This document shows, one piece after another, positions 24,940 through 64,000 of a DNA stretch of 64,000 nt. This stretch comes from Escherichia coli. GTDB lineage: Bacteria; Pseudomonadota; Gammaproteobacteria; Enterobacterales; Enterobacteriaceae. A program made the translations under genes and the position numbers. Below the pieces are notes generated by a model. The model was given only the letters and a program-made list of their open reading frames with translations. It was not told the origin of the DNA and did not search any database. Position 1 is the first letter of the stretch. The number at the start of each line of letters is the position of its first letter. The stretch is taken from the NCBI RefSeq assembly GCF_048403405.1, contig NZ_CP183129.1, one strand, 5' to 3'.

Positions 24940-27900
24940 ATGAAAAAGTTACGCGTAGCCGCCTGCATGCTAATGCTGGCGCTGGCAGGGTGCGACAACA
25001 ACGATAACGCGCCAACAGCGGTGAAAAAAGATGCGCCTTCTGAAGTTACTAAAGCGGCTTCTTCAGAAAACGTGAGTTCAGCAAAACTTTCCGCGCCGGA
25101 GCGACAAAAACTGGCCCAACAGAGTGCCGGTAAGGCGCTGACATTGCTGGATCTCTCTGAAGTTCAACTTGATGGCGCAGCCACGCTGGTGCTGACGTTC
25201 TCCATTCCTCTCGACCCGGATCAGGATTTCTCACGCGTTATCCATGTCGTCGATAAGAAAAGCGGCAAAGTGGATGGTGCCTGGGAGCTGTCAGATAATC
25301 TTAAAGAGTTGCGTTTACGCCACCTCGAACCGAAACGTGATTTGATCGTCACTATTGGCAAGGAGGTCAAAGCACTCAACAACGCAACCTTCAGTAAAGA
25401 TTACGAAAAAACTATAACTACCCGCGATATCCAACCCAGCGTCGGTTTTGCCAGCCGTGGTTCGTTGTTACCTGGTAAAGTTATTGAAGGGCTGCCGGTA
25501 ATGGCGCTCAACGTTAACAATGTTGATGTTAACTTCTTCCGTGTGAAGCCCGAATCTCTGCCTGCATTCATTAGCCAATGGGAATACCGCAATTCGCTGG
25601 CGAACTGGCAGTCTGAAAAACTGCTGCAGATGGCGGATCTGGTTTATACCGGACGGTTTGATCTCAATCCTGCGCGTAACACCCGTGAAAAATTATTGCT
25701 GCCGCTGGGCGATATCAAACCGCTTCAGCAGGCAGGCGTGTATCTGGCTGTGATGAATCAGGCTGGGCGTTACGATTACAGTAATCCCGCGACGCTGTTT
25801 ACGTTAAGTGATATCGGCGTTTCAGCTCACCGTTATCACAATCGTCTGGATATCTTTACCCAAAGTCTGGAAAACGGCGCGGCCCAGCAAGGAATAGAAG
25901 TCTCTTTATTAAATGAGAAAGGGCAGACTCTGACTCAGGCAACCAGTGATGCTCAGGGGCATGTGCAGCTGGAAAATGATAAAAACGCGGCATTACTGCT
26001 GGCGCGTAAAGACGGTCAGACAACGCTACTCGATTTAAAACTTCCGGCGCTGGACTTAGCAGAATTTAACATTGCTGGCGCGCCAGGCTATAGCAAACAG
26101 TTTTTCATGTTTGGCCCGCGCGATCTTTATCGCCCTGGTGAAACAGTCATCCTCAATGGTTTATTGCGTGATGCAGATGGAAAAGCATTGCCCGATCAAC
26201 CCATCAAGTTAGACGTGATTAAACCCGACGGGCAGATACTCAGGAGCGTCGTTAGTCAGCCGGAGAATGGCCTCTACCACTTTACCTGGCCACTCGATAG
26301 CAATGCGGCAACCGGTATGTGGCATATTCGTGCTAACACGGGCGATAACCAGTACCGGATGTGGGATTTCCACGTCGAAGATTTTATGCCAGAGCGCATG
26401 GCGCTGAATCTGACTGGTGAGAAAACCCCGCTAACGCCGAAAGATGAAGTGAGATTTTCCGTGGTGGGGTACTACCTGTATGGTGCGCCTGCTAATGGTA
26501 ATACTTTGCAAGGGCAACTTTTCCTGCGCCCACTGCGTGAAGCTGTGTCAGCCTTACCTGGTTTCGAATTCGGCGATATAGCTGCCGAAAATCTTTCCCG
26601 CACGCTGGATGAAGTTCAGTTGACGCTGGATGATAAAGGGCGTGGCGAAGTTTCTACAGAAAGCCAGTGGAAGGAAACGCATTCCCCATTACAGGTTATT
26701 TTCCAGGGTAGTTTGTTGGAATCGGGCGGTCGCCCGGTGACGCGCCGCGCTGAGCAGGCTATCTGGCCTGCCGATGCATTGCCGGGGATCCGTCCGCAGT
26801 TCGCCTCGAAATCGGTTTACGATTATCGCACTGACAGCACGGTGAAACAGCCCATTGTTGATGAAGGCAGTAACGCCGCTTTTGACATCGTTTATAGCGA
26901 TGCGCAAGGCGTGAAAAAAGCCGTGTCGGGCTTGCAGGTGCGCCTGATTCGCGAACGCCGCGATTACTACTGGAACTGGTCAGAAGATGAAGGCTGGCAA
27001 TCACAGTTTGATCAAAAAGATCTGATTGAAAATGAACAAACTCTGGATCTGAAAGCGGACGAAACCGGCAAGGTCAGTTTCCCGGTAGAGTGGGGCGCTT
27101 ATCGTCTGGAAGTCAAAGCGCCGAATGAAGCGGTCAGTAGTGTGCGTTTCTGGGCTGGCTATAGCTGGCAGGACAACAGCGACGGTAGCGGCGCAGTGCG
27201 TCCGGACCGTGTCACGCTGAAACTGGATAAAGCCAGTTATCGCCCGGGCGACACCATTAAGTTGCATATCGCCGCGCCAACGGCGGGTAAAGGTTATGCG
27301 ATGGTCGAGTCCAGTGAAGGGCCGCTGTGGTGGCAAGAGATTGATGTTCCGGCTCAAGGGCTGGATCTGACGATTCCGGTCGATAAAACCTGGAATCGTC
27401 ATGATTTGTATTTAAGTACGCTGGTGGTACGTCCTGGCGATAAATCTCGCTCTGCGACGCCAAAACGCGCAGTTGGGGTGTTGCATCTGCCGCTTGGCGA
27501 TGAAAACCGTCGTCTCGATCTGGCGCTGGAAACCCCCACCAAAATGCGCCCCAATCAGCCATTAACCGTGAAAATTAAAGCCAGCAATAAAAATGGTGAG
27601 ATGCCAAAACAGGTGAATGTGCTGGTGTCTGCCGTTGATAGCGGTGTGCTGAATATTACTGATTACGTTACCCCCGATCCGTGGCAGGCGTTCTTTGGTC
27701 AGAAACGCTATGGTGCAGACATTTACGATATTTACGGTCAGGTCATTGAAGGTCAGGGGCGTCTGGCAGCTCTGCGTTTTGGTGGCGATGGTGATGAGCT
27801 GAAACGTGGTGGTAAACCGCCGGTCAATCACGTCAATATTGTCGCGCAGCAGGCGCTGCCGGTAACGCTCAACGAACAGGGCGAAGGCTCGGTTACACTG

Positions 27901-56335: not shown

Positions 56336-57913
56336 ATGACGGAAAACATTCATAAGCATCGCATCCTCATTCTGGACTTCGGTTCTCAGTACACTCAACT
56401 GGTTGCGCGCCGCGTGCGTGAACTGGGTGTTTACTGCGTACTGTGGGCGTGGGATGTGACAGAAGCACAAATTCGTGACTTCAACCCAAGCGGCATTATT
56501 CTTTCCGGCGGCCCGGAAAGCACCACCGAAGAAAACAGCCCGCGTGCGCCGCAGTATGTCTTTGAAGCAGGCGTACCGGTATTCGGCGTTTGCTATGGCA
56601 TGCAGACCATGGCAATGCAGTTGGGCGGTCACGTTGAAGCCTCTAACGAACGTGAATTTGGCTACGCGCAGGTTGAAGTCGTAAACGACAGCGCACTGGT
56701 TCGCGGTATCGAAGATGCGCTGACTGCAGACGGTAAACCGCTGCTCGATGTCTGGATGAGCCACGGCGATAAAGTTACCGCTATCCCGTCCGACTTCGTC
56801 ACCGTAGCCAGCACCGAAAGCTGCCCGTTTGCCATTATGGCCAACGAAGAAAAACGCTTCTACGGCGTACAGTTCCACCCGGAAGTGACTCACACCCGCC
56901 AGGGTATGCGCATGCTGGAGCGCTTTGTGCGTGATATCTGCCAGTGTGAAGCCCTGTGGACGCCGGCGAAAATTATCGACGACGCTGTAGCTCGCATCCG
57001 CGAGCAGGTGGGCGACGATAAAGTCATCCTCGGCCTTTCTGGTGGCGTGGATTCCTCCGTAACCGCAATGCTGCTGCACCGCGCTATCGGTAAAAACCTG
57101 ACTTGCGTATTCGTCGACAACGGCCTGCTGCGTCTCAACGAAGCAGAGCAGGTTCTGGATATGTTTGGCGATCACTTTGGTCTCAATATTGTTCACGTTC
57201 CGGCAGAAGATCGCTTCCTGTCAGCGCTGGCTGGCGAAAACGATCCGGAAGCAAAACGTAAAATCATCGGGCGCGTTTTCGTTGAAGTATTCGATGAAGA
57301 AGCGCTGAAACTGGAAGACGTGAAGTGGCTGGCGCAGGGTACTATCTACCCTGACGTTATCGAATCTGCGGCGTCTGCAACCGGTAAAGCACACGTCATC
57401 AAATCTCACCACAACGTGGGCGGCCTGCCGAAAGAGATGAAGATGGGCCTGGTTGAACCGCTGAAAGAGCTGTTCAAAGACGAAGTGCGTAAGATTGGTC
57501 TGGAGCTGGGCCTGCCGTACGACATGCTGTACCGTCATCCGTTCCCGGGACCAGGCCTTGGCGTTCGTGTTCTGGGTGAAGTGAAGAAAGAGTACTGTGA
57601 CCTGCTGCGCCGCGCTGACGCCATCTTCATTGAAGAACTGCGTAAAGCGGGCCTGTACGACAAAGTCAGCCAGGCGTTCACCGTCTTCCTGCCAGTACGT
57701 TCCGTTGGCGTAATGGGCGATGGTCGTAAGTATGACTGGGTTGTCTCTCTGCGTGCTGTCGAAACCATCGACTTTATGACCGCACACTGGGCGCATCTGC
57801 CGTACGATTTCCTCGGTCGCGTTTCCAACCGCATTATCAATGAAGTGAACGGTATTTCCCGCGTGGTGTATGACATCAGCGGCAAGCCGCCAGCTACCAT
57901 TGAGTGGGAATGA
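56336..57913 (+). CDS. guaA: GMP synthase (glutamine-hydrolysing)
   Basis: 525 aa; GATase domain plus ATP-PPase motif SGGVDSSV. Confidence 0.96.
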
Positions 57914-57959
57914 TTAACAGCTAACTCATAGCAAATCATTCCTATTCAGATGCCAACTC

Positions 57960-57992: not shown

Positions 57993-58105
57993 ATGTATTC
58001 ATTTCTATTCACTCTACACCATATTTTTCGGCGGTACAGGTGACGGTATTACCTTAAAGGTATACTCTCATACCGTCATGAAAATGGTTTCTATACGGGT
58101 GAATT

Positions 58106-59356
58106 GTGCTTACCGATACAAAATTAAAAAACCTCAAGCCGCAGGACAAACTGTACAAGGTCTCCGATCGTGACGGGCTGTATGTAGCTGTGCTTACGTC
58201 AGGCACGGTCTCGTTTCGCTATGACTACCGTATCAACGGTCGCCGCGAAACACTGGTAATCGGGCAGTATGGGCGTGACGGTATCAGCCTGGCAGAAGCG
58301 CGAGAAGAACTGATTGCTGCAAAGAAGCTGCTTAAAGCAGGCCAGTCACCGGCTGCGGCTAAACGTGACGGTATCAAAAAGATTCGTGGTGCCGAGACGT
58401 TTGCGGTACATACCGACAGTTATATGAAACATGTCATCCTGGCTGACAGTACCCGCGCAATGAAGCAGGCGGTGATCGACCGTGACATACTTCCGGTTCT
58501 TGGCAACAAAATGATGACTGAAATTACCACATCGATGGTTCGTGATTTGTGTGACCGGATTGTCGAACGCGGTGGTCGGGCAACAGCAGTGCAGGCCAGG
58601 GAGATCATCAGCAGCGTATACCGTCACGCCAATGACCGTGGTCATGGTTTGTTTAATCCTGCGGCTGACATTAAACCTTCGTCTATCGCCATATTTAAAC
58701 CACGAGAGCGAACACTGACGCCAGAAGAAATTGGCCTGTTCTTCCGCACGCTGGATGCCATTGGTGCTATGGGCACTATGAAAATGGCTTTAAAGCTGGT
58801 GCTTATCACTATGGTTCGTAAAGGCGAATTCACCAATGCAACGTGGGACGAAATAGATTTTAAAAAATGGACATGGACAATTCCTTCAGACCGCATGAAG
58901 GGAAGCCGGGCGCATGTTATTTACCTGCCTAAACAGGCACAGGATATATTGGTCGGGTTGCAGATGTGCGCTGGTGGAAGTGAATATCTGGTTCCTGGTC
59001 GTTACAACTTCCGGAAGCCATTATCTAATGCCGCGCTGAACTCTCTGATCGACAGAACGGTGAAAATAATAAATGAAGATGGTGAGCATATTCAGGACTT
59101 CACCGTACATGATATGCGCCGTACAGCCAGTACGTTGTTGCATGAGGCTGGTTATCCTTCAGACTGGATTGAAAAGGCTCTGGCACATGAGCAGAAAGGT
59201 GTGCGCGCCGTATATAACAAAGCGGAATACGCCAGACAGCGCGCCTACATGTTGCAGCAGTGGGCCGATATGATTGATTCCTGGATTGACGGGGAGCATA
59301 CGGATCTGATTCCGTTCTCCCCGTCGAAGTTTGAGAAGTGGATGGCGGGAGAATAA
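58106..59356 (+). CDS. Tyrosine recombinase, P4-type phage integrase
   Basis: GTG start; N-terminus LTDTKLKNLKPQDKLYKVSDRDGLYVAV...FRYDYRINGRRE typical of P4-family integrase arm-binding domain; C-terminal catalytic region with HDMRRT and Y near end. Confidence 0.9.
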   Translation: MLTDTKLKNLKPQDKLYKVSDRDGLYVAVLTSGTVSFRYDYRINGRRETLVIGQYGRDGISLAEAREELIAAKKLLKAGQSPAAAKRDGIKKIRGAETFAVHTDSYMKHVILADSTRAMKQAVIDRDILPVLGNKMMTEITTSMVRDLCDRIVERGGRATAVQAREIISSVYRHANDRGHGLFNPAADIKPSSIAIFKPRERTLTPEEIGLFFRTLDAIGAMGTMKMALKLVLITMVRKGEFTNATWDEIDFKKWTWTIPSDRMKGSRAHVIYLPKQAQDILVGLQMCAGGSEYLVPGRYNFRKPLSNAALNSLIDRTVKIINEDGEHIQDFTVHDMRRTASTLLHEAGYPSDWIEKALAHEQKGVRAVYNKAEYARQRAYMLQQWADMIDSWIDGEHTDLIPFSPSKFEKWMAGE

Positions 59357-59359
59357 CGT

Positions 59360-59554
59360 TTAATAGTTCTGCTGATTTTCTTCCATCTCGGCTTCTGCTG
59401 CCAGTGATTCAATTTTGTCTGCGAATATTGCTGACAGCGTTGCAAATTCAGCATCAGTGACAGCGGGAATTGGAACAAACCTGATCCCGCTGTGTGCAAG
59501 CATGTTTGCAGTTTCAAGGCATTTCCTTAAATCTGCTGGTGATGCCCTGTTCAT
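59360..59554 (-). CDS. Hypothetical small phage protein (64 aa)
   Basis: ATG 59554 overlaps methyltransferase stop (ATGA coupling); acidic C-terminus; no recognised family. Confidence 0.4.
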   Translation of the reverse strand: MNRASPADLRKCLETANMLAHSGIRFVPIPAVTDAEFATLSAIFADKIESLAAEAEMEENQQNY

Positions 59555-60201
59555 GCTGCACGCTCCCGCCCCTGGTTGTCTGTTGGTGACAGCGGAGCAT
59601 TGCTGAATGCATTTGTTAATTCGGCAATATCCAACGCGTATCCAGGGTGTAGTTGCACTGCCGGGTCTTCGCACTGATTACCCCAAACATCGAAGCCATG
59701 AGACGTCTGGCGGGCGAACAGTTCAATGCGAGAAACATCGCCTAACAATTGCACAAGTTTTTCACGAACAATATCTGGTTTTCTTGAATGCTCAAGCCGC
59801 GGTGCGGTAAATGACTGAACGATCCCTGCATTAATGCGCGTAGGTAGTTTTCCCTTTACTGCAAACAGGCAATCTTCACTATTGGCGCGAGTCATGTGTC
59901 CCATACCCATAACCAGTTTATCTGGTTGTCGACTACCACATTTTATCCACGTGAAGCCCTTCATGGTCATCAGACGGAATCCCCAGACTTCAACAACTTT
60001 TAGTGCTTCGAGTGGTTGTGTTGGCACCCACCACATGGCCAACAGACAGTTTTCATCGGCCAAATCCCACACAGGAAGGCGGCAGATATCCAGCACACTC
60101 ATAACCGGGTATTTAAAACCGGCACCGCGATTACCATCTGCGGCTTTGTCCCGGTATACCCAGGGTGGATCTGCATAGATTAGTGTGTATTTCTTAGTCA
60201 T
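59551..60201 (-). CDS. MT-A70 family DNA N6-adenine methyltransferase (phage-type)
   Basis: MTKKYTLIYADPPWVY... with catalytic DPPW motif; start at ATG 60201 preferred (GGGGTGG RBS), ORF-track GTG 60213 possible. Confidence 0.8.
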   Translation of the reverse strand: MTKKYTLIYADPPWVYRDKAADGNRGAGFKYPVMSVLDICRLPVWDLADENCLLAMWWVPTQPLEALKVVEVWGFRLMTMKGFTWIKCGSRQPDKLVMGMGHMTRANSEDCLFAVKGKLPTRINAGIVQSFTAPRLEHSRKPDIVREKLVQLLGDVSRIELFARQTSHGFDVWGNQCEDPAVQLHPGYALDIAELTNAFSNAPLSPTDNQGRERAA

Positions 60202-60493
60202 AAACCACCCCACAACATCCTATGCCGCTATAGTCGCCACGGCGAAGGCCGTTACCTTTTGTGATACATTGGTCCCTGCGAACCGCGATCCTTGCACGCT
60301 CAACATCACCAGAAGCAACATCCATACACTGAAGCCAAAGGTGGGCGGCAATGCGGAACTGCCCTTTTTTCTCTCTTTCAATCGCGCGTTTTTCGATCTC
60401 TATCGCCGCAGGAGTAACGGCAACAACCTTTGAAGGGCTGCGCATTGAAACCTTGTTCATGTGATATTTTTCAAGTCGGCTTAACTTTCTCAC
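60194..60493 (-). CDS. Hypothetical phage protein (start uncertain)
   Basis: ORF overlapping methylase start by 8 bp; basic/charged; no recognised motif. Confidence 0.35.
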   Translation of the reverse strand: MRKLSRLEKYHMNKVSMRSPSKVVAVTPAAIEIEKRAIEREKKGQFRIAAHLWLQCMDVASGDVERARIAVRRDQCITKGNGLRRGDYSGIGCCGVVYD

Positions 60494-63057: not shown

Positions 63058-63147
63058 TTACCTCGGTCTGTTACCGTTGAGGTAATGATTATGCGTATCT
63101 GGTTTGATGTCAATAGATATGAGTTAAAAAAATTACCCAACAGGTAA
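63058..63147. promoter_or_regulatory. Early-operon promoter/operator region with inverted repeats
   Basis: TTACCTC-N14-GAGGTAA (63058-63085) and palindrome TTACCCAACAGGTAA (63133-63147), which recurs at 63845-63859. Confidence 0.5.
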
Positions 63148-63156
63148 TCTAACAGG

Positions 63157-63184
63157 CAATAAAAAAGCCGCCATGAGGCGGCTT
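63157..63184 (-). terminator. Rho-independent terminator downstream of repressor gene
   Basis: aagccgcc-atga-ggcggctt hairpin with U-tract on minus strand. Confidence 0.65.
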
Positions 63185-63204
63185 ACTTGCTGAAAACTAT
63201 AGTT

Positions 63205-63789
63205 TTATTGTTTGTTTTTTTCGTTCTGGTTGATGACAAATTCAATGTAACTTTCGATCTTTGCTTTCTCGGTTTCGGGTAACAATGCGTAGCGCGAGCG
63301 GTCATAGTTGATAGTCGCAGGGTCGTGCGGGTGAATCAGTAATTCATAGCCATGACGCCCGAATGCGGATGCAACATTCTCCAGGGTGGAAATGGAAACG
63401 CTGACCTCATTGTTTAACAGGCGGCTGATTGTCACCTGGGCGACGCCGGATGCGCGGTGTAGTTTTCCCTGCGTTGAAAGGTCGCGGCTTTCGCTCATCC
63501 AGCGTTCCAGGTTGTGAGCAGCCAGCTGACCTATATCACTCGGGCCGACAGGCTGAAAACCTTCCTGAGAAAGCGAGCGATCGATATCAAGCCAGTTACG
63601 GGGTTTATTGGCGGCAGCTTCAATTTTTCGCGCAACCTGGTCGCCGATAACCTTCTTGCCAAGAGCCCAGCGGTTTACCAGATTTGCCTGAGTTCCAAGT
63701 TTTTCTGCCATCCGCGTCTGAACACCATTGAATTCACGGTCGATCAAGTCGTTGAGATTTTGCCTGCGGACGTCCTGGATACTTTTCAT
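63205..63789 (-). CDS. Phage repressor-like protein with two HTH (XRE/CI-type) domains
   Basis: 194 aa; two helix-turn-helix-like segments (QTRMAEKLGTQANLVNRWALG and LHRASGVAQVTISRLLNNEVSVSISTL); flanked by operator-like palindromes. Confidence 0.6.
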   Translation of the reverse strand: MKSIQDVRRQNLNDLIDREFNGVQTRMAEKLGTQANLVNRWALGKKVIGDQVARKIEAAANKPRNWLDIDRSLSQEGFQPVGPSDIGQLAAHNLERWMSESRDLSTQGKLHRASGVAQVTISRLLNNEVSVSISTLENVASAFGRHGYELLIHPHDPATINYDRSRYALLPETEKAKIESYIEFVINQNEKNKQ

Positions 63790-63943
63790 TTTCTGGAAAA
63801 TCGCCTCATATATGAATCAGTAGATGATTCAATTTAAAGCAATATTACCCAACAGGTAAATGCACCTCATAGGTAACTATCCTTGATTTTTGTTACCTTA
63901 TGGGTGAATATTTATTATCTGAAATAAATATCAGGCAATAGCT
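63790..63943. promoter_or_regulatory. Divergent promoter/operator region (repressor vs rightward gene)
   Basis: Contains TTACCCAACAGGTAA (63845-63859) and GGTAAC...GTTACC inverted repeats. Confidence 0.5.
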
Positions 63944-64000
63944 ATGAGCGATAACGGACATTTCGATTTCAAAAAGCACTGGCTTGCACTTACTCCGGAC
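63944..64000 (+). CDS. Rightward phage gene, 5' fragment only (truncated by window end)
   Basis: ATG 63944 (MSDNGHFDFKKHWLALTPD...) open to window edge; divergent from repressor. Confidence 0.35.
   Translation, partial: MSDNGHFDFKKHWLALTPD

Follow-up and report, generated by a model that had tools for sequence, protein, structure and literature searches.

The window, as the whole 64,000-nucleotide stretch of Escherichia coli DNA analysed here is called, ends in a region in which a repressor gene is flanked on both sides by copies of a palindrome. This locus raises the question of which protein reads the palindrome, what its functional unit is, and whether the arrangement represents, as a preliminary description of the DNA proposed, the left and right operators of a lambdoid immunity switch bound by a tandem helix-turn-helix (HTH) repressor. 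These features belong to the immunity region of a prophage of the phiV10 type (epsilon15-like, genus Uetakevirus) inserted at guaA, only the last 6.1 kb of which fall inside the window. Its gene order (int, methylase, AlpA-like, RecT/exonuclease, small genes, rep and cro-like, at guaA) matches that of Uetakevirus, and the att core ATTGAGTGGGAATGATT at 57899–57915 is identical to the attP/attB core described for vB_EcoP_ZX5. The phage is a podovirus with a gene content unrelated to that of lambda, and no N or Q homologue is annotated in the genome map of phiV10, an epsilon15-like podovirus. The features of the region are collected in Table 1.

Table 1. Observed and predicted features of the immunity region and of the integrase-upstream site, in window coordinates.
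Feature	Position	Strand	Remarks
Possible sixth site TTACCTTAAAGGTAT	58049..58063		One mismatch; 43 bp upstream of integrase start
Left proximal operator (predicted) TTACCGTTGAGGTAA	63071..63085		Exact TTACC-N5-GGTAA match
Putative leftward early promoter (PL-like)	63085..63113	-	Consensus scan, 10/12 matches
Left distal operator (predicted) TTACCCAACAGGTAA	63133..63147		Exact
Intrinsic terminator of repressor gene	63165..63184	-	8-bp GC-rich stem, then T-run
Rep-type repressor gene, 194 aa	63205..63789	-	100% identical to phiV10 gp40 and vB_EcoP_ZX5 ORF21
Right operator a (predicted) TTACCCAACAGGTAA	63845..63859		Exact; perfect arms, nearest repressor gene
Right operator b (predicted) GCACCTCATAGGTAA	63862..63876		Two mismatches, weak left arm
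Putative rightward early promoter (PR-like)	63883..63918	+	Two alternative box pairs
Right operator c (predicted) TTACCTTATGGGTGA	63893..63907		One mismatch
Cro-like gene start (phiV10 gp41 homologue)	63944..64000	+	Cut by window end

The palindrome TTACCCAACAGGTAA occurs in the two exact copies originally described, one on either side of the repressor gene, and a search of the 64-kb window yielded no third. With a free spacer, TTACC-N5-GGTAA has three exact matches in the window, all within 63071–63859; the search for further copies returned additional sites of this relaxed form and no other exact 15-mer. Within 840 bp around the repressor gene there are three exact and two near sites, that is, five predicted operators, two to the left of the gene and three to its right, inside the divergent gap. 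The accompanying GTTACC/GGTAAC repeats are present and correspond to the arms lengthened by one base. Also present is the inverted pair TTACCTC (63058–63064) and GAGGTAA (63079–63085), which consists of the right arm of the site at 63071 and an additional TTACC; read on the minus strand, the latter, on the 63058 side, corresponds to GAGG, the ribosome-binding site that serves the first leftward gene.

Short repeats in two copies are often due to chance, and both intergenic regions have a G+C content of only 34%, which would fit chance repeats in AT-rich intergenic DNA. However, ten matches with up to one mismatch were observed in the whole window against 0.99 expected, a count reached by no shuffle, and the 6.1-kb prophage part holds five such sites against 0.17 expected from shuffles. 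Since the arms also form invariant islands in variable sequence and the sites are syntenic across genera, a chance origin is barely conceivable. The 57.9-kb host part contains no exact match and five one-mismatch sites (1.74 expected from shuffles); four of 100 shuffles reached five, and these host sites are taken as chance matches.

Comparison of prophages encoding the identical repressor (79 loci, metagenomic and genomic) defines the conserved unit. The sites are present in 77 to 79 of these loci, so absence of the motif from phages with the same repressor, which would have spoken against operators of this protein, is not what is observed. Right operators a and c occur in 79/79, and the arms of the left proximal operator are kept in 77/79. 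Among 54 distinct left-hand sequences of the identical-repressor prophages the arms are unchanged throughout, in contrast to the spacer and flanks; the spacer positions of the left distal site match the window in only 0–80% of these sequences. At this site the 77 other identical-repressor prophages always keep the arms and have at least 15 different spacers, never that of TTACCCAACAGGTAA. The conserved unit is therefore the pair of 5-bp arms TTACC-N5-GGTAA with a free 5-bp spacer. The 15-mer is ruled out as the functional unit, given that spacers vary among prophages with the same repressor while arms are kept; of the 15-bp motif first noticed the arms are conserved, whereas the 15/15 identity of both copies is peculiar to this prophage lineage. 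Phages with repressors of 42–78% identity (Tyrion, BUCT554, Klebsiella BUCT711, epsilon15 and SPN1S) carry the same arms at corresponding places. In a comparison of five diverged phages the arms of right operator a are kept throughout, and those of the left proximal operator are kept in Tyrion, BUCT554, Klebsiella BUCT711 and epsilon15.

On the left side, the PL-like candidate sits between the two operators, the proximal one adjoining its −10 box (−35 TTGACA at 63113–63108, 17-bp spacer, −10 AATCAT at 63090–63085). The left operators are 62 bp apart, start to start, a distance kept in 77/79 loci as well as in phiV10, Tyrion, BUCT554 and epsilon15, and GTCAATAG, which contains the PL-like −35, is invariant in five diverged phages. 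The terminator of the repressor gene stands between that gene and the left operators, and the phiV10 record annotates a terminator at the same place. The leader of the leftward transcript brings in the alternative that the inverted repeats work in RNA, as small hairpins of leaders or terminators, rather than as protein-binding DNA: this leader can adopt a fold (−9.4 kcal/mol, z −2.8) in which UUACCUC is paired with GAGGUAA and the ribosome-binding site for the first leftward gene is occluded. A hairpin of only 5 bp around a 5-nt loop is, however, very weak, the arms are invariant in sequence and do not covary, several sites lie upstream of or between promoter elements and may be untranscribed, and many unrelated promoters, as well as unrelated phages, carry the same arms. 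A role in RNA is thus very unlikely for the sites at large, and the leader hairpin, if real, would be an additional layer at a single site.

On the right side, the gap between the repressor gene and the Cro-like gene measures 155 bp, and its three predicted operators start 17 and 31 bp apart (at 63845, 63862 and 63893). The weak GCACC arm of operator b is conserved in phiV10, Tyrion and BUCT554, and a full TTACC stands at the aligned place in Klebsiella BUCT711 and epsilon15. Operator c covers, or falls between, the candidate −35 and −10 boxes of the putative rightward promoter, which can be read either as −35 TTGATT (63883–63888) with a −10 at 63906–63912 or, as chosen by the scan (9/12 matches), as −35 TTGTTA (63890–63895) with −10 TATTAT (63913–63918); the operator overlaps the core promoter under both readings. 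The adjacent TTGATTTTT is invariant in five diverged phages. Both early promoters are putative, being consensus matches from a scan in which promoter-like sites were no commoner than in shuffles (2 against 1.7). No convincing leftward promoter of the repressor gene was found in 63790–63900; a TAATAT −10 overlapping operator a is accompanied by a poor −35.

The motif extends well beyond the immunity region. The phiV10 genome, in whose record no operators are annotated, has nine exact sites against 0.025 expected, and over the genome of the phage as a whole about seven promoter regions carry the motif. In E. coli CM2, the closest complete prophage, 10 of 12 sites are intergenic although the prophage is 92% coding. 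Inside the window a possible sixth site precedes the integrase gene; sites with the same mismatch and position and a different spacer occur in phiV10 (26870–26884) and epsilon15 (26882–26896). Its assignment as an operator is ambiguous, given that it also falls within an 8-bp inverted repeat and that the epsilon15 record marks integrase and RNase III sites in the integrase-upstream region. Such marks, the IHF and integrase sites placed in that record beside or over some of the palindromes, and the adenine methylase encoded by the phage could suggest that the sites serve the integrase (as arm sites) or IHF, or are targeted by the phage methyltransferases. Yet methylase or restriction targets would not avoid coding DNA in the way these sites do, integrase arm sites cluster at att and not at seven promoters, and the motif follows the DNA-binding domain of the repressor through unrelated phages (see below), all of which makes these functions highly improbable.

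A precedent is provided by predicted repressor-binding sites of Salmonella phage epsilon15, whose record (AY150271.2) marks seven sites as "protein_bind, repressor", 7/7 of which coincide with exact matches to the motif. Both phages share the arms ATTACC-N5-GGTAAT, a site downstream of the repressor gene and before the left operon, the 62-bp pair spacing, the gene order, and sites upstream of terS, gp3, the tailspike gene and the RusA-like gene, even though identity between their repressors is no more than 42%. The left sites number three in epsilon15, compared with two here, and the three right-hand sites are present in epsilon15 though left unannotated in its record. The spacers also differ: in epsilon15 they are A/T-rich, often with A as the first base, whereas in the phiV10 type this base is a pyrimidine in 93% of half-sites. 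Equivalent sites had thus already been annotated, and the find is solid and fairly ordinary; a literature search for the motif returned only unrelated papers containing primers.

Together, the sites, their conservation, their positions relative to the genes and the homologies established here indicate that the palindromes are very probably the operators of the adjacent Rep-type repressor, arranged as left and right sets around its gene. Overexpression of ORF21 of vB_EcoP_ZX5, the identical protein, abolished free phage and lowered holin and endolysin transcripts by >99.9% (PMC9782041). The repressor is homologous over its full length to Rep of Salmonella phage SPC32H (PDB 5D50 and 5D4Z; 5D50_A, E 4e-42, residues 1–190 aligned to 2–197 in a phmmer search of the PDB; 42% identity), in which an N-terminal DNA-binding domain is followed by a dimerisation domain and, at the C-terminus, by a domain for tetramerisation and Ant binding. 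Like that protein it lacks an S24 domain: a Pfam search gave HTH-type matches only and no Peptidase_S24. No NCBIfam family reached the cut-off for the repressor, the Cro-like protein or Ant, and an AlphaFold model of the repressor (6-sequence alignment, mean pLDDT 47) was too poor for use. In two secondary accounts, SPC32H Rep is described as binding DNA as a tetramer in which the DNA-binding pairs come from different dimers, and its antirepressor Ant as breaking this tetramer (PMC9638917, PMC9986798). One of them calls the second HTH-like region of Rep a dimerisation domain (PMC9986798). Aromatic residues of the tetramer interface align between the two proteins (Y181/F184 here, F187/F190 in SPC32H Rep). 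The phiV10-type phages also share with the Rep-Ant system an Ant homologue with a LexA box: phiV10 gp24 is a match to SPC32H Ant (5D50_E, E 3e-46) and is preceded by the perfect LexA box CTGTATAAATACACAG, and CTGTATAAATATACAG adjoins the homologous gene position in the closest complete prophage. Tetrameric operator binding and release by Ant, known for SPC32H through these secondary accounts, would apply to the repressor of this locus by homology.

Sequence recognition most likely lies in the N-terminal domain and not in both HTH-like regions, judging from the alignments: throughout the genus residues 36–41 (NLVNRW) do not change, the candidate recognition helix of the N-terminal domain being invariant and that of the second HTH-like region variable, and a symmetric palindrome is what would be expected for two copies of one domain. 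An exhaustive search of the N-terminal domain against representatives gave 2754 clusters at E≤1e-3. All of 10 distant repressor types with a Rep-like helix have TTACC-N4/5-GGTAA 30–120 bp upstream of the gene, exact except for one mismatch in L096 and L105, and no such upstream sites were found for three family members with a different helix. In four of the ten an S24 peptidase C-terminus replaces that of Rep. These S24-type cI repressors differ from the repressor of this locus in having a self-cleaving peptidase C-terminus, without the dimerisation and tetramerisation domains, in a 4-bp spacer in 2/4 cases (5 bp here), and in phage type and neighbouring genes. For instance, the cI protein of Pseudomonas phage PseuP_224 has a homologous N-terminal domain (39% identity, E 1e-12) and the same arms directly upstream of its gene, as two exact TTACC-N4-GGTAA sites. 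The tandem-HTH reading of the preliminary description is misleading, because the motif goes with the N-terminal domain by itself: repressors without a second HTH-like domain also have the same arms. The site map likewise corrects the circulating assumption, found in the vB_EcoP_ZX5 paper, that the C-terminal HTH is the DNA-binding part. A simple rule linking the half-site to one helix residue was discarded, as P0018 has Gln at the position of Rep Arg40 and keeps TTACC sites.

The other candidate reader is the Cro-like protein, whose translation MSDNGHFDFKKHWLALTPD matches phiV10 gp41 and which matches phrog_35, "transcriptional repressor" (E 5.6e-13). Cro and CI use common operators in lambda-type switches. 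That the sites are read mainly by this protein and not by the repressor is favoured by the gp41 homologues being 58–84% identical across the genus with an invariant HTH segment (AGTTSHYIQ.HLT), which fits the invariance of the arms better than a repressor identity of 42%. On the other hand, the motif accompanies the repressor N-terminal domain even where the divergent gene of the phage bears no relation to gp41 (the Cro-like neighbour in PseuP_224 gave no alignment with it at E≤100), the small neighbour genes differ at other S24-type loci, and a lysogenic repressor is the expected reader of sites at late, lysis and tail-fibre promoters. A switch read mainly by the Cro-like protein is consequently improbable. 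This protein may nevertheless read the same arms, and their use by both proteins is likely and hardly a rival to operators of the repressor.

The mechanism that we infer for these operators, from repressor binding and the exact promoters to cooperativity or looping and autoregulation, would be as follows. Half-sites one helical turn apart would be read by a pair of N-terminal HTH domains. The left pair, 62 bp apart, would bracket the leftward early promoter and, the proximal site adjoining the −10, bound repressor would shut off the recombination/excision operon. On the right, the weakest of the three sites in the 155-bp gap would overlap the rightward promoter, and the two nearer the repressor gene probably assist cooperative loading of that weak site and exert feedback on the promoter of the repressor itself. 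Judged from its homology with SPC32H Rep, the repressor would be a tetramer with two DNA-binding pairs, so that one tetramer may hold two sites simultaneously. Induction would proceed by a LexA-controlled antirepressor, encoded beyond the window, that takes the tetramer apart, with no cleavage of the repressor. Bridging of the 62 bp by a single tetramer, an idea suggested by the conserved spacing, would require strong bending of the DNA.

The comparison with lambda is accordingly mixed. As at OL and OR, the repressor gene is flanked by left and right operator sets, three predicted sites lie in the divergent repressor/cro gap, the putative early promoters are overlapped, and palindromic half-sites are one helical turn apart. 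Unlike in lambda, there is no domain for RecA-stimulated self-cleavage and induction would be by antirepressor (by homology), the left sites, 62 bp apart, enclose the promoter rather than standing next to each other, and the operator motif also occurs at promoters of the late, lysis, tail and replication regions, which would make the repressor's targets phage-wide. Of the right-hand sites the strongest stands at the greatest distance from PR, opposite to the order in OR1–OR3, and lambda logic is for this reason not simply transferable. The proposed layout of left and right operators therefore stands, with two and three sites, but its attribution to a lambdoid switch does not, this being an epsilon15-like podovirus whose repressor has no S24 domain; the site map corrects the circulating assumption that the switch is lambda-like.

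In the lambdoid model, heteroimmune phages differ in the half-site itself. A broader and tentative reading, which we consider possible though somewhat less probable than its negation, is that the TTACC half-site may be a near-invariant element of a large, poorly catalogued family of repressor N-terminal domains, in which immunity specificity would be set by spacer length (N4/N5), the first spacer base and site geometry rather than by the core half-site. Under such a reading the domain family may be joined to one of two modules, an Ant-controlled one for tetramerisation or a LexA-like one for self-cleavage, and promoter-bracketing pairs at 62 or about 74–78 bp may be clamped by a single tetramer. 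If true, partial cross-immunity would be predicted among Uetakeviruses of Escherichia, Salmonella, Klebsiella and Enterobacter, and a half-site common to repressors with different induction modules could aid the prediction of operators and cross-immunity for thousands of uncharacterised prophage repressors. Phages of the phiV10 type serve as O157 reporter and typing phages, and knowledge of the operators offers a direct handle on the immunity, induction and engineering of phiV10-type prophages. Of 5426 complete E. coli genomes, 559 carry this immunity region.

Sequence comparison supports the palindromic sites on both sides of the repressor gene as predicted operators of an epsilon15/SPC32H-type Rep repressor, a known kind. 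The core reading of the preliminary description, that they form left and right operator sets for this adjacent repressor, is borne out, as the arms (TTACC and GGTAA) are kept at aligned places across relatives. These operators were previously unannotated for the phiV10 type; what is modestly new is that the spacer is free, that sites 62 bp apart bracket promoters in pairs, and that one half-site is common to a large family of N-terminal domains coupled to either of two induction modules.

The window ends within the prophage and contains only 6.1 kb of its ~39 kb, with the gene order (after int) methylase, AlpA-like, RecT, exonuclease, two small proteins, repressor and Cro-like protein. The prophage DNA is 97-98% identical to phiV10, vB_EcoP_ZX5 and related Uetakevirus (epsilon15-like podoviruses), and 559 of 5426 complete E. 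coli genomes contain the 1.1-kb immunity region. The nearest complete prophage, that of E. coli CM2 (L090), is 99.9% identical to the window in this region, and its cargo between int and the AlpA-like gene (L090 37824-40191, encoding a DGQHR-domain protein, an MT-A70 methyltransferase and a Ser/Thr phosphatase) differs from that at 59360-60213, a difference that shows mosaic exchange beside a conserved switch.

Features of the prophage end and its immunity region
Feature	Position	Strand	Sequence	Remark
guaA	56336-57913			3' end overlapped by attachment core
Attachment core	57899-57915		ATTGAGTGGGAATGATT	prophage boundary
Possible sixth operator	58049-58063		TTACCTTAAAGGTAT	one mismatch; 43 bp upstream of integrase start
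Integrase gene	58106-59356			next after attachment core
Left proximal site	63071-63085		TTACCGTTGAGGTAA	exact once the 5 central bases are left free
Candidate PL (leftward early promoter)	63113-63085	minus	TTGACA-17-AATCAT	promoter scan
Left distal site	63133-63147		TTACCCAACAGGTAA	exact
Repressor gene	63205-63789	minus		194 aa
Right site a	63845-63859		TTACCCAACAGGTAA	exact
Right site b	63862-63876		GCACCTCATAGGTAA	2 mismatches to TTACC-N5-GGTAA
Right site c	63893-63907		TTACCTTATGGGTGA	1 mismatch to TTACC-N5-GGTAA
LexA-box-like palindrome, CTG-N10-CAG	63919-63934		CTGAAATAAATATCAG	between PR -10 candidates and Cro-like start codon
Cro-like gene	first 19 codons in window			divergent from repressor gene

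The two 15-bp copies reported earlier (left distal and right a) are both exact and are the only two in 64 kb. Matches to TTACC-N5-GGTAA with at most one mismatch number 10 in the whole window against ~1 expected, a count unmatched by any shuffle, and five in the 6.1-kb prophage part against 0.17 expected (separate shuffles); the 57.9 kb of host DNA in the window contains no exact site. The additional inverted repeats described at the outset are likewise present: GTTACC/GGTAAC represents the arms lengthened by one base, and in the pair TTACCTC (63058)...GAGGTAA (63085) an arm of the left proximal site is matched with the first leftward gene's ribosome-binding site (GAGG on the opposite strand). 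In the PL leader RNA (63058-63085, minus strand) a UUACCUC:GAGGUAA hairpin is possible (-9.4 kcal/mol, z -2.8) which would hide the Shine-Dalgarno of that gene; Enterobacter phages Tyrion and BUCT554 retain its extra TTACC, which epsilon15 and Klebsiella phage BUCT711 lack.

Conservation was examined in 80 viral contigs with an identical repressor, in 79 of which the gene start was located. Absence of the motif from such phages had been named as a ground for abandoning the operator reading; right sites a and c occur in 79/79 loci and both left sites in 77/79, at least one of the remaining two (L016) being a contig that ends just past the gene. Among 54 distinct left-hand sequences the distal site has constant arms (ten bases), while the base found in the window's spacer is shared by only 0-80% of them, depending on position, and the right flank is variable too. 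The 15-mer as such was considered as the conserved unit and rejected: at least 15 other spacers were found at the left distal site, and the window's spacer never among them. Full identity of the two copies (15/15) is thus an accident of this lineage, with constraint acting on TTACC-N5-GGTAA as the unit. The arms also occupy aligned positions in Tyrion and BUCT554 (repressor 75-78% identical), BUCT711 (about 45%) and the Salmonella phages epsilon15 and SPN1S (42%).

The left proximal operator starts at the final base of the candidate -10 of PL and the distal one lies ~20 bp upstream of the -35, in a layout where five diverged phages share the -35-bearing segment unchanged and the 62-bp start-to-start spacing recurs in 77/79 loci as well as in phiV10, Tyrion, BUCT554 and epsilon15. 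A second 62-bp pair is located upstream of a DUF1064/RusA-region gene, beyond the window and ~2.3 kb to the right, where a promoter-like TTGATT-17-TTTAAT likewise ends at the proximal operator. More distant relatives have pair spacings of 62 or about 74-78 bp, and most spacings are near whole numbers of helical turns. On the right, the invariant TTGATTTTT (from 63883) is likely the -35 of the rightward early promoter PR, and site c lies either in the candidate PR spacer or over an alternative -35 called by the scan. We infer operator binding, promoter positions, bridging and autoregulation alike: repressor on the left proximal site and right site c would block both early promoters, the strong sites (left distal, right a) would recruit a tetramer so that weaker or promoter-overlapping sites are filled, and the repressor's own promoter, necessarily within the 155-bp gap between the repressor and Cro-like genes, would thereby be autoregulated. 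The LexA-box-like palindrome is unchanged in all 15 distinct sequences of the right-hand side and is shared by Tyrion and BUCT554, not by epsilon15 or BUCT711; it may serve as a weak LexA site or as a site for the Cro-like protein itself.

The GenBank record of epsilon15 labels seven sites 'protein_bind, repressor, lysogeny', three of them between the repressor gene and the left operon (e.g., ATTACCAAAATGGTAAT). All seven are exact motif matches, and the record leaves four more such matches unannotated, two of the three right-hand sites among them. Because only 6.1 kb of prophage lies in the window, the search proposed for the rest of the prophage was run on phiV10 and E. coli CM2, and further copies were found. 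phiV10 has nine exact and five one-mismatch sites, spread beyond the immunity region (upstream of terS, gp06, int and gp45, around the ant operon, in the oac/holin divergent region and past the gp41 terminator), and epsilon15 has sites at the same places; in the CM2 prophage, which is 92% coding, 10 of 12 sites are intergenic. The repressor therefore probably silences most transcription units directly, which fits the effect of overexpressing ORF21 of vB_EcoP_ZX5, where free phage was abolished and holin and endolysin transcripts fell by >99.9% (PMC9782041). In the small terminase gene of phiV10 (L007 41-715) operator-like sites at 87-101 and 105-119 fall inside the annotated start, as they do in the CM2 prophage, and their epsilon15 counterparts precede a terS that is shorter; in the phiV10 type, terS probably starts further downstream than annotated.

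The repressor is 100% identical to ORF21 and to phiV10 gp40; no operators were mapped in the vB_EcoP_ZX5 paper (PMC9782041) or annotated in the phiV10 record. Its homology to SPC32H Rep (PDB 5D50_A, E 4e-42) is full-length. According to secondary sources on that protein, Rep comprises N-terminal DNA-binding, middle dimerisation and C-terminal tetramerisation/antirepressor-binding domains, sits on palindromic DNA as a tetramer with N-terminal domain pairs contributed by different dimers, and is dismantled by the tetrameric antirepressor Ant (PMC9638917; PMC9986798). A close Ant homologue, phiV10 gp24 (5D50_E, E 3e-46), has a perfect LexA box upstream, and no S24 domain was found in the repressor. 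These homologies, with the missing S24 domain, indicate a switch of Rep/Ant type and not lambda type, so that of the 'lambdoid immunity switch' first proposed the left and right operator sets are retained and the type is not. The Ant match (L007 20543-20800; 82 residues, few substitutions) is far stronger than that of its expected partner, only 42% identical to SPC32H Rep, a pairing of a nearly unchanged Ant with strongly diverged repressor C-termini. The 'anti-repressor' tested for vB_EcoP_ZX5 (ORF4; PMC9782041) is a Bro-N-domain protein (L007 19646-20230) with no PDB relative; the counterpart of the Ant of known structure is a different protein, gp24.

Repressor residues 36-41 (NLVNRW) are invariant within the genus; the HTH-like segment 106-147, the better Pfam match, varies. 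A profile search with the N-terminal domain recovered 2754 representative clusters (E<=1e-3, 76 to 331 aa), from which contigs of 13 clusters, together with Pseudomonas phage PseuP_224, provided a small sample of 14 repressors. A Rep-like helix occurs in 10 of them, all with TTACC-N5-GGTAA or TTACC-N4-GGTAA 30-120 bp upstream (exact in eight, one-mismatch only in L096 and L105) and frequently with downstream sites as well. In four of the ten an S24 peptidase C-terminus replaces that of Rep and the neighbouring genes are unrelated; the divergent ORF of PseuP_224 shows no similarity to Cro-like gp41, and the TTACC/GGTAA sites are absent from three sampled members whose helix differs. By this comparison the half-site travels with the N-terminal domain, not with the second HTH-like region or the Cro-like neighbour, and the tandem-HTH reading of the repressor becomes unlikely, since the arms follow this domain even in S24-type proteins without the Rep C-terminus. 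Nor does the comparison support the C-terminal HTH, to which DNA binding has been attributed (PMC9782041). A rule tying one helix residue to the half-site was sought and rejected, as no single residue rule holds. The HTH of the Cro-like protein is invariant across the genus. In lambda, Cro shares operators with the repressor, and by analogy the Cro-like protein may well share sites with the repressor here.

Two S24-type repressors with the shared N-terminal domain have the 4-bp spacer (L089 1922-1974, L097 479-531), and the PseuP_224 cI (L089) carries an insertion following the recognition helix. The first spacer base is a pyrimidine in 93% of phiV10-type half-sites and A in 2% (L007, L090, L009-L088), and A in 46-53% in epsilon15, Klebsiella and more distant types (L008, L006, L004 compared); this base may be where heteroimmunity is encoded. 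At the possible sixth site phiV10 and epsilon15 have the same mismatch at the same place with a different spacer, and an 8-bp inverted repeat, GACGGTAT...ATACCGTC, encloses it; it may control int as an operator, or belong to the att-arm/RNA-processing signals that the epsilon15 record marks.
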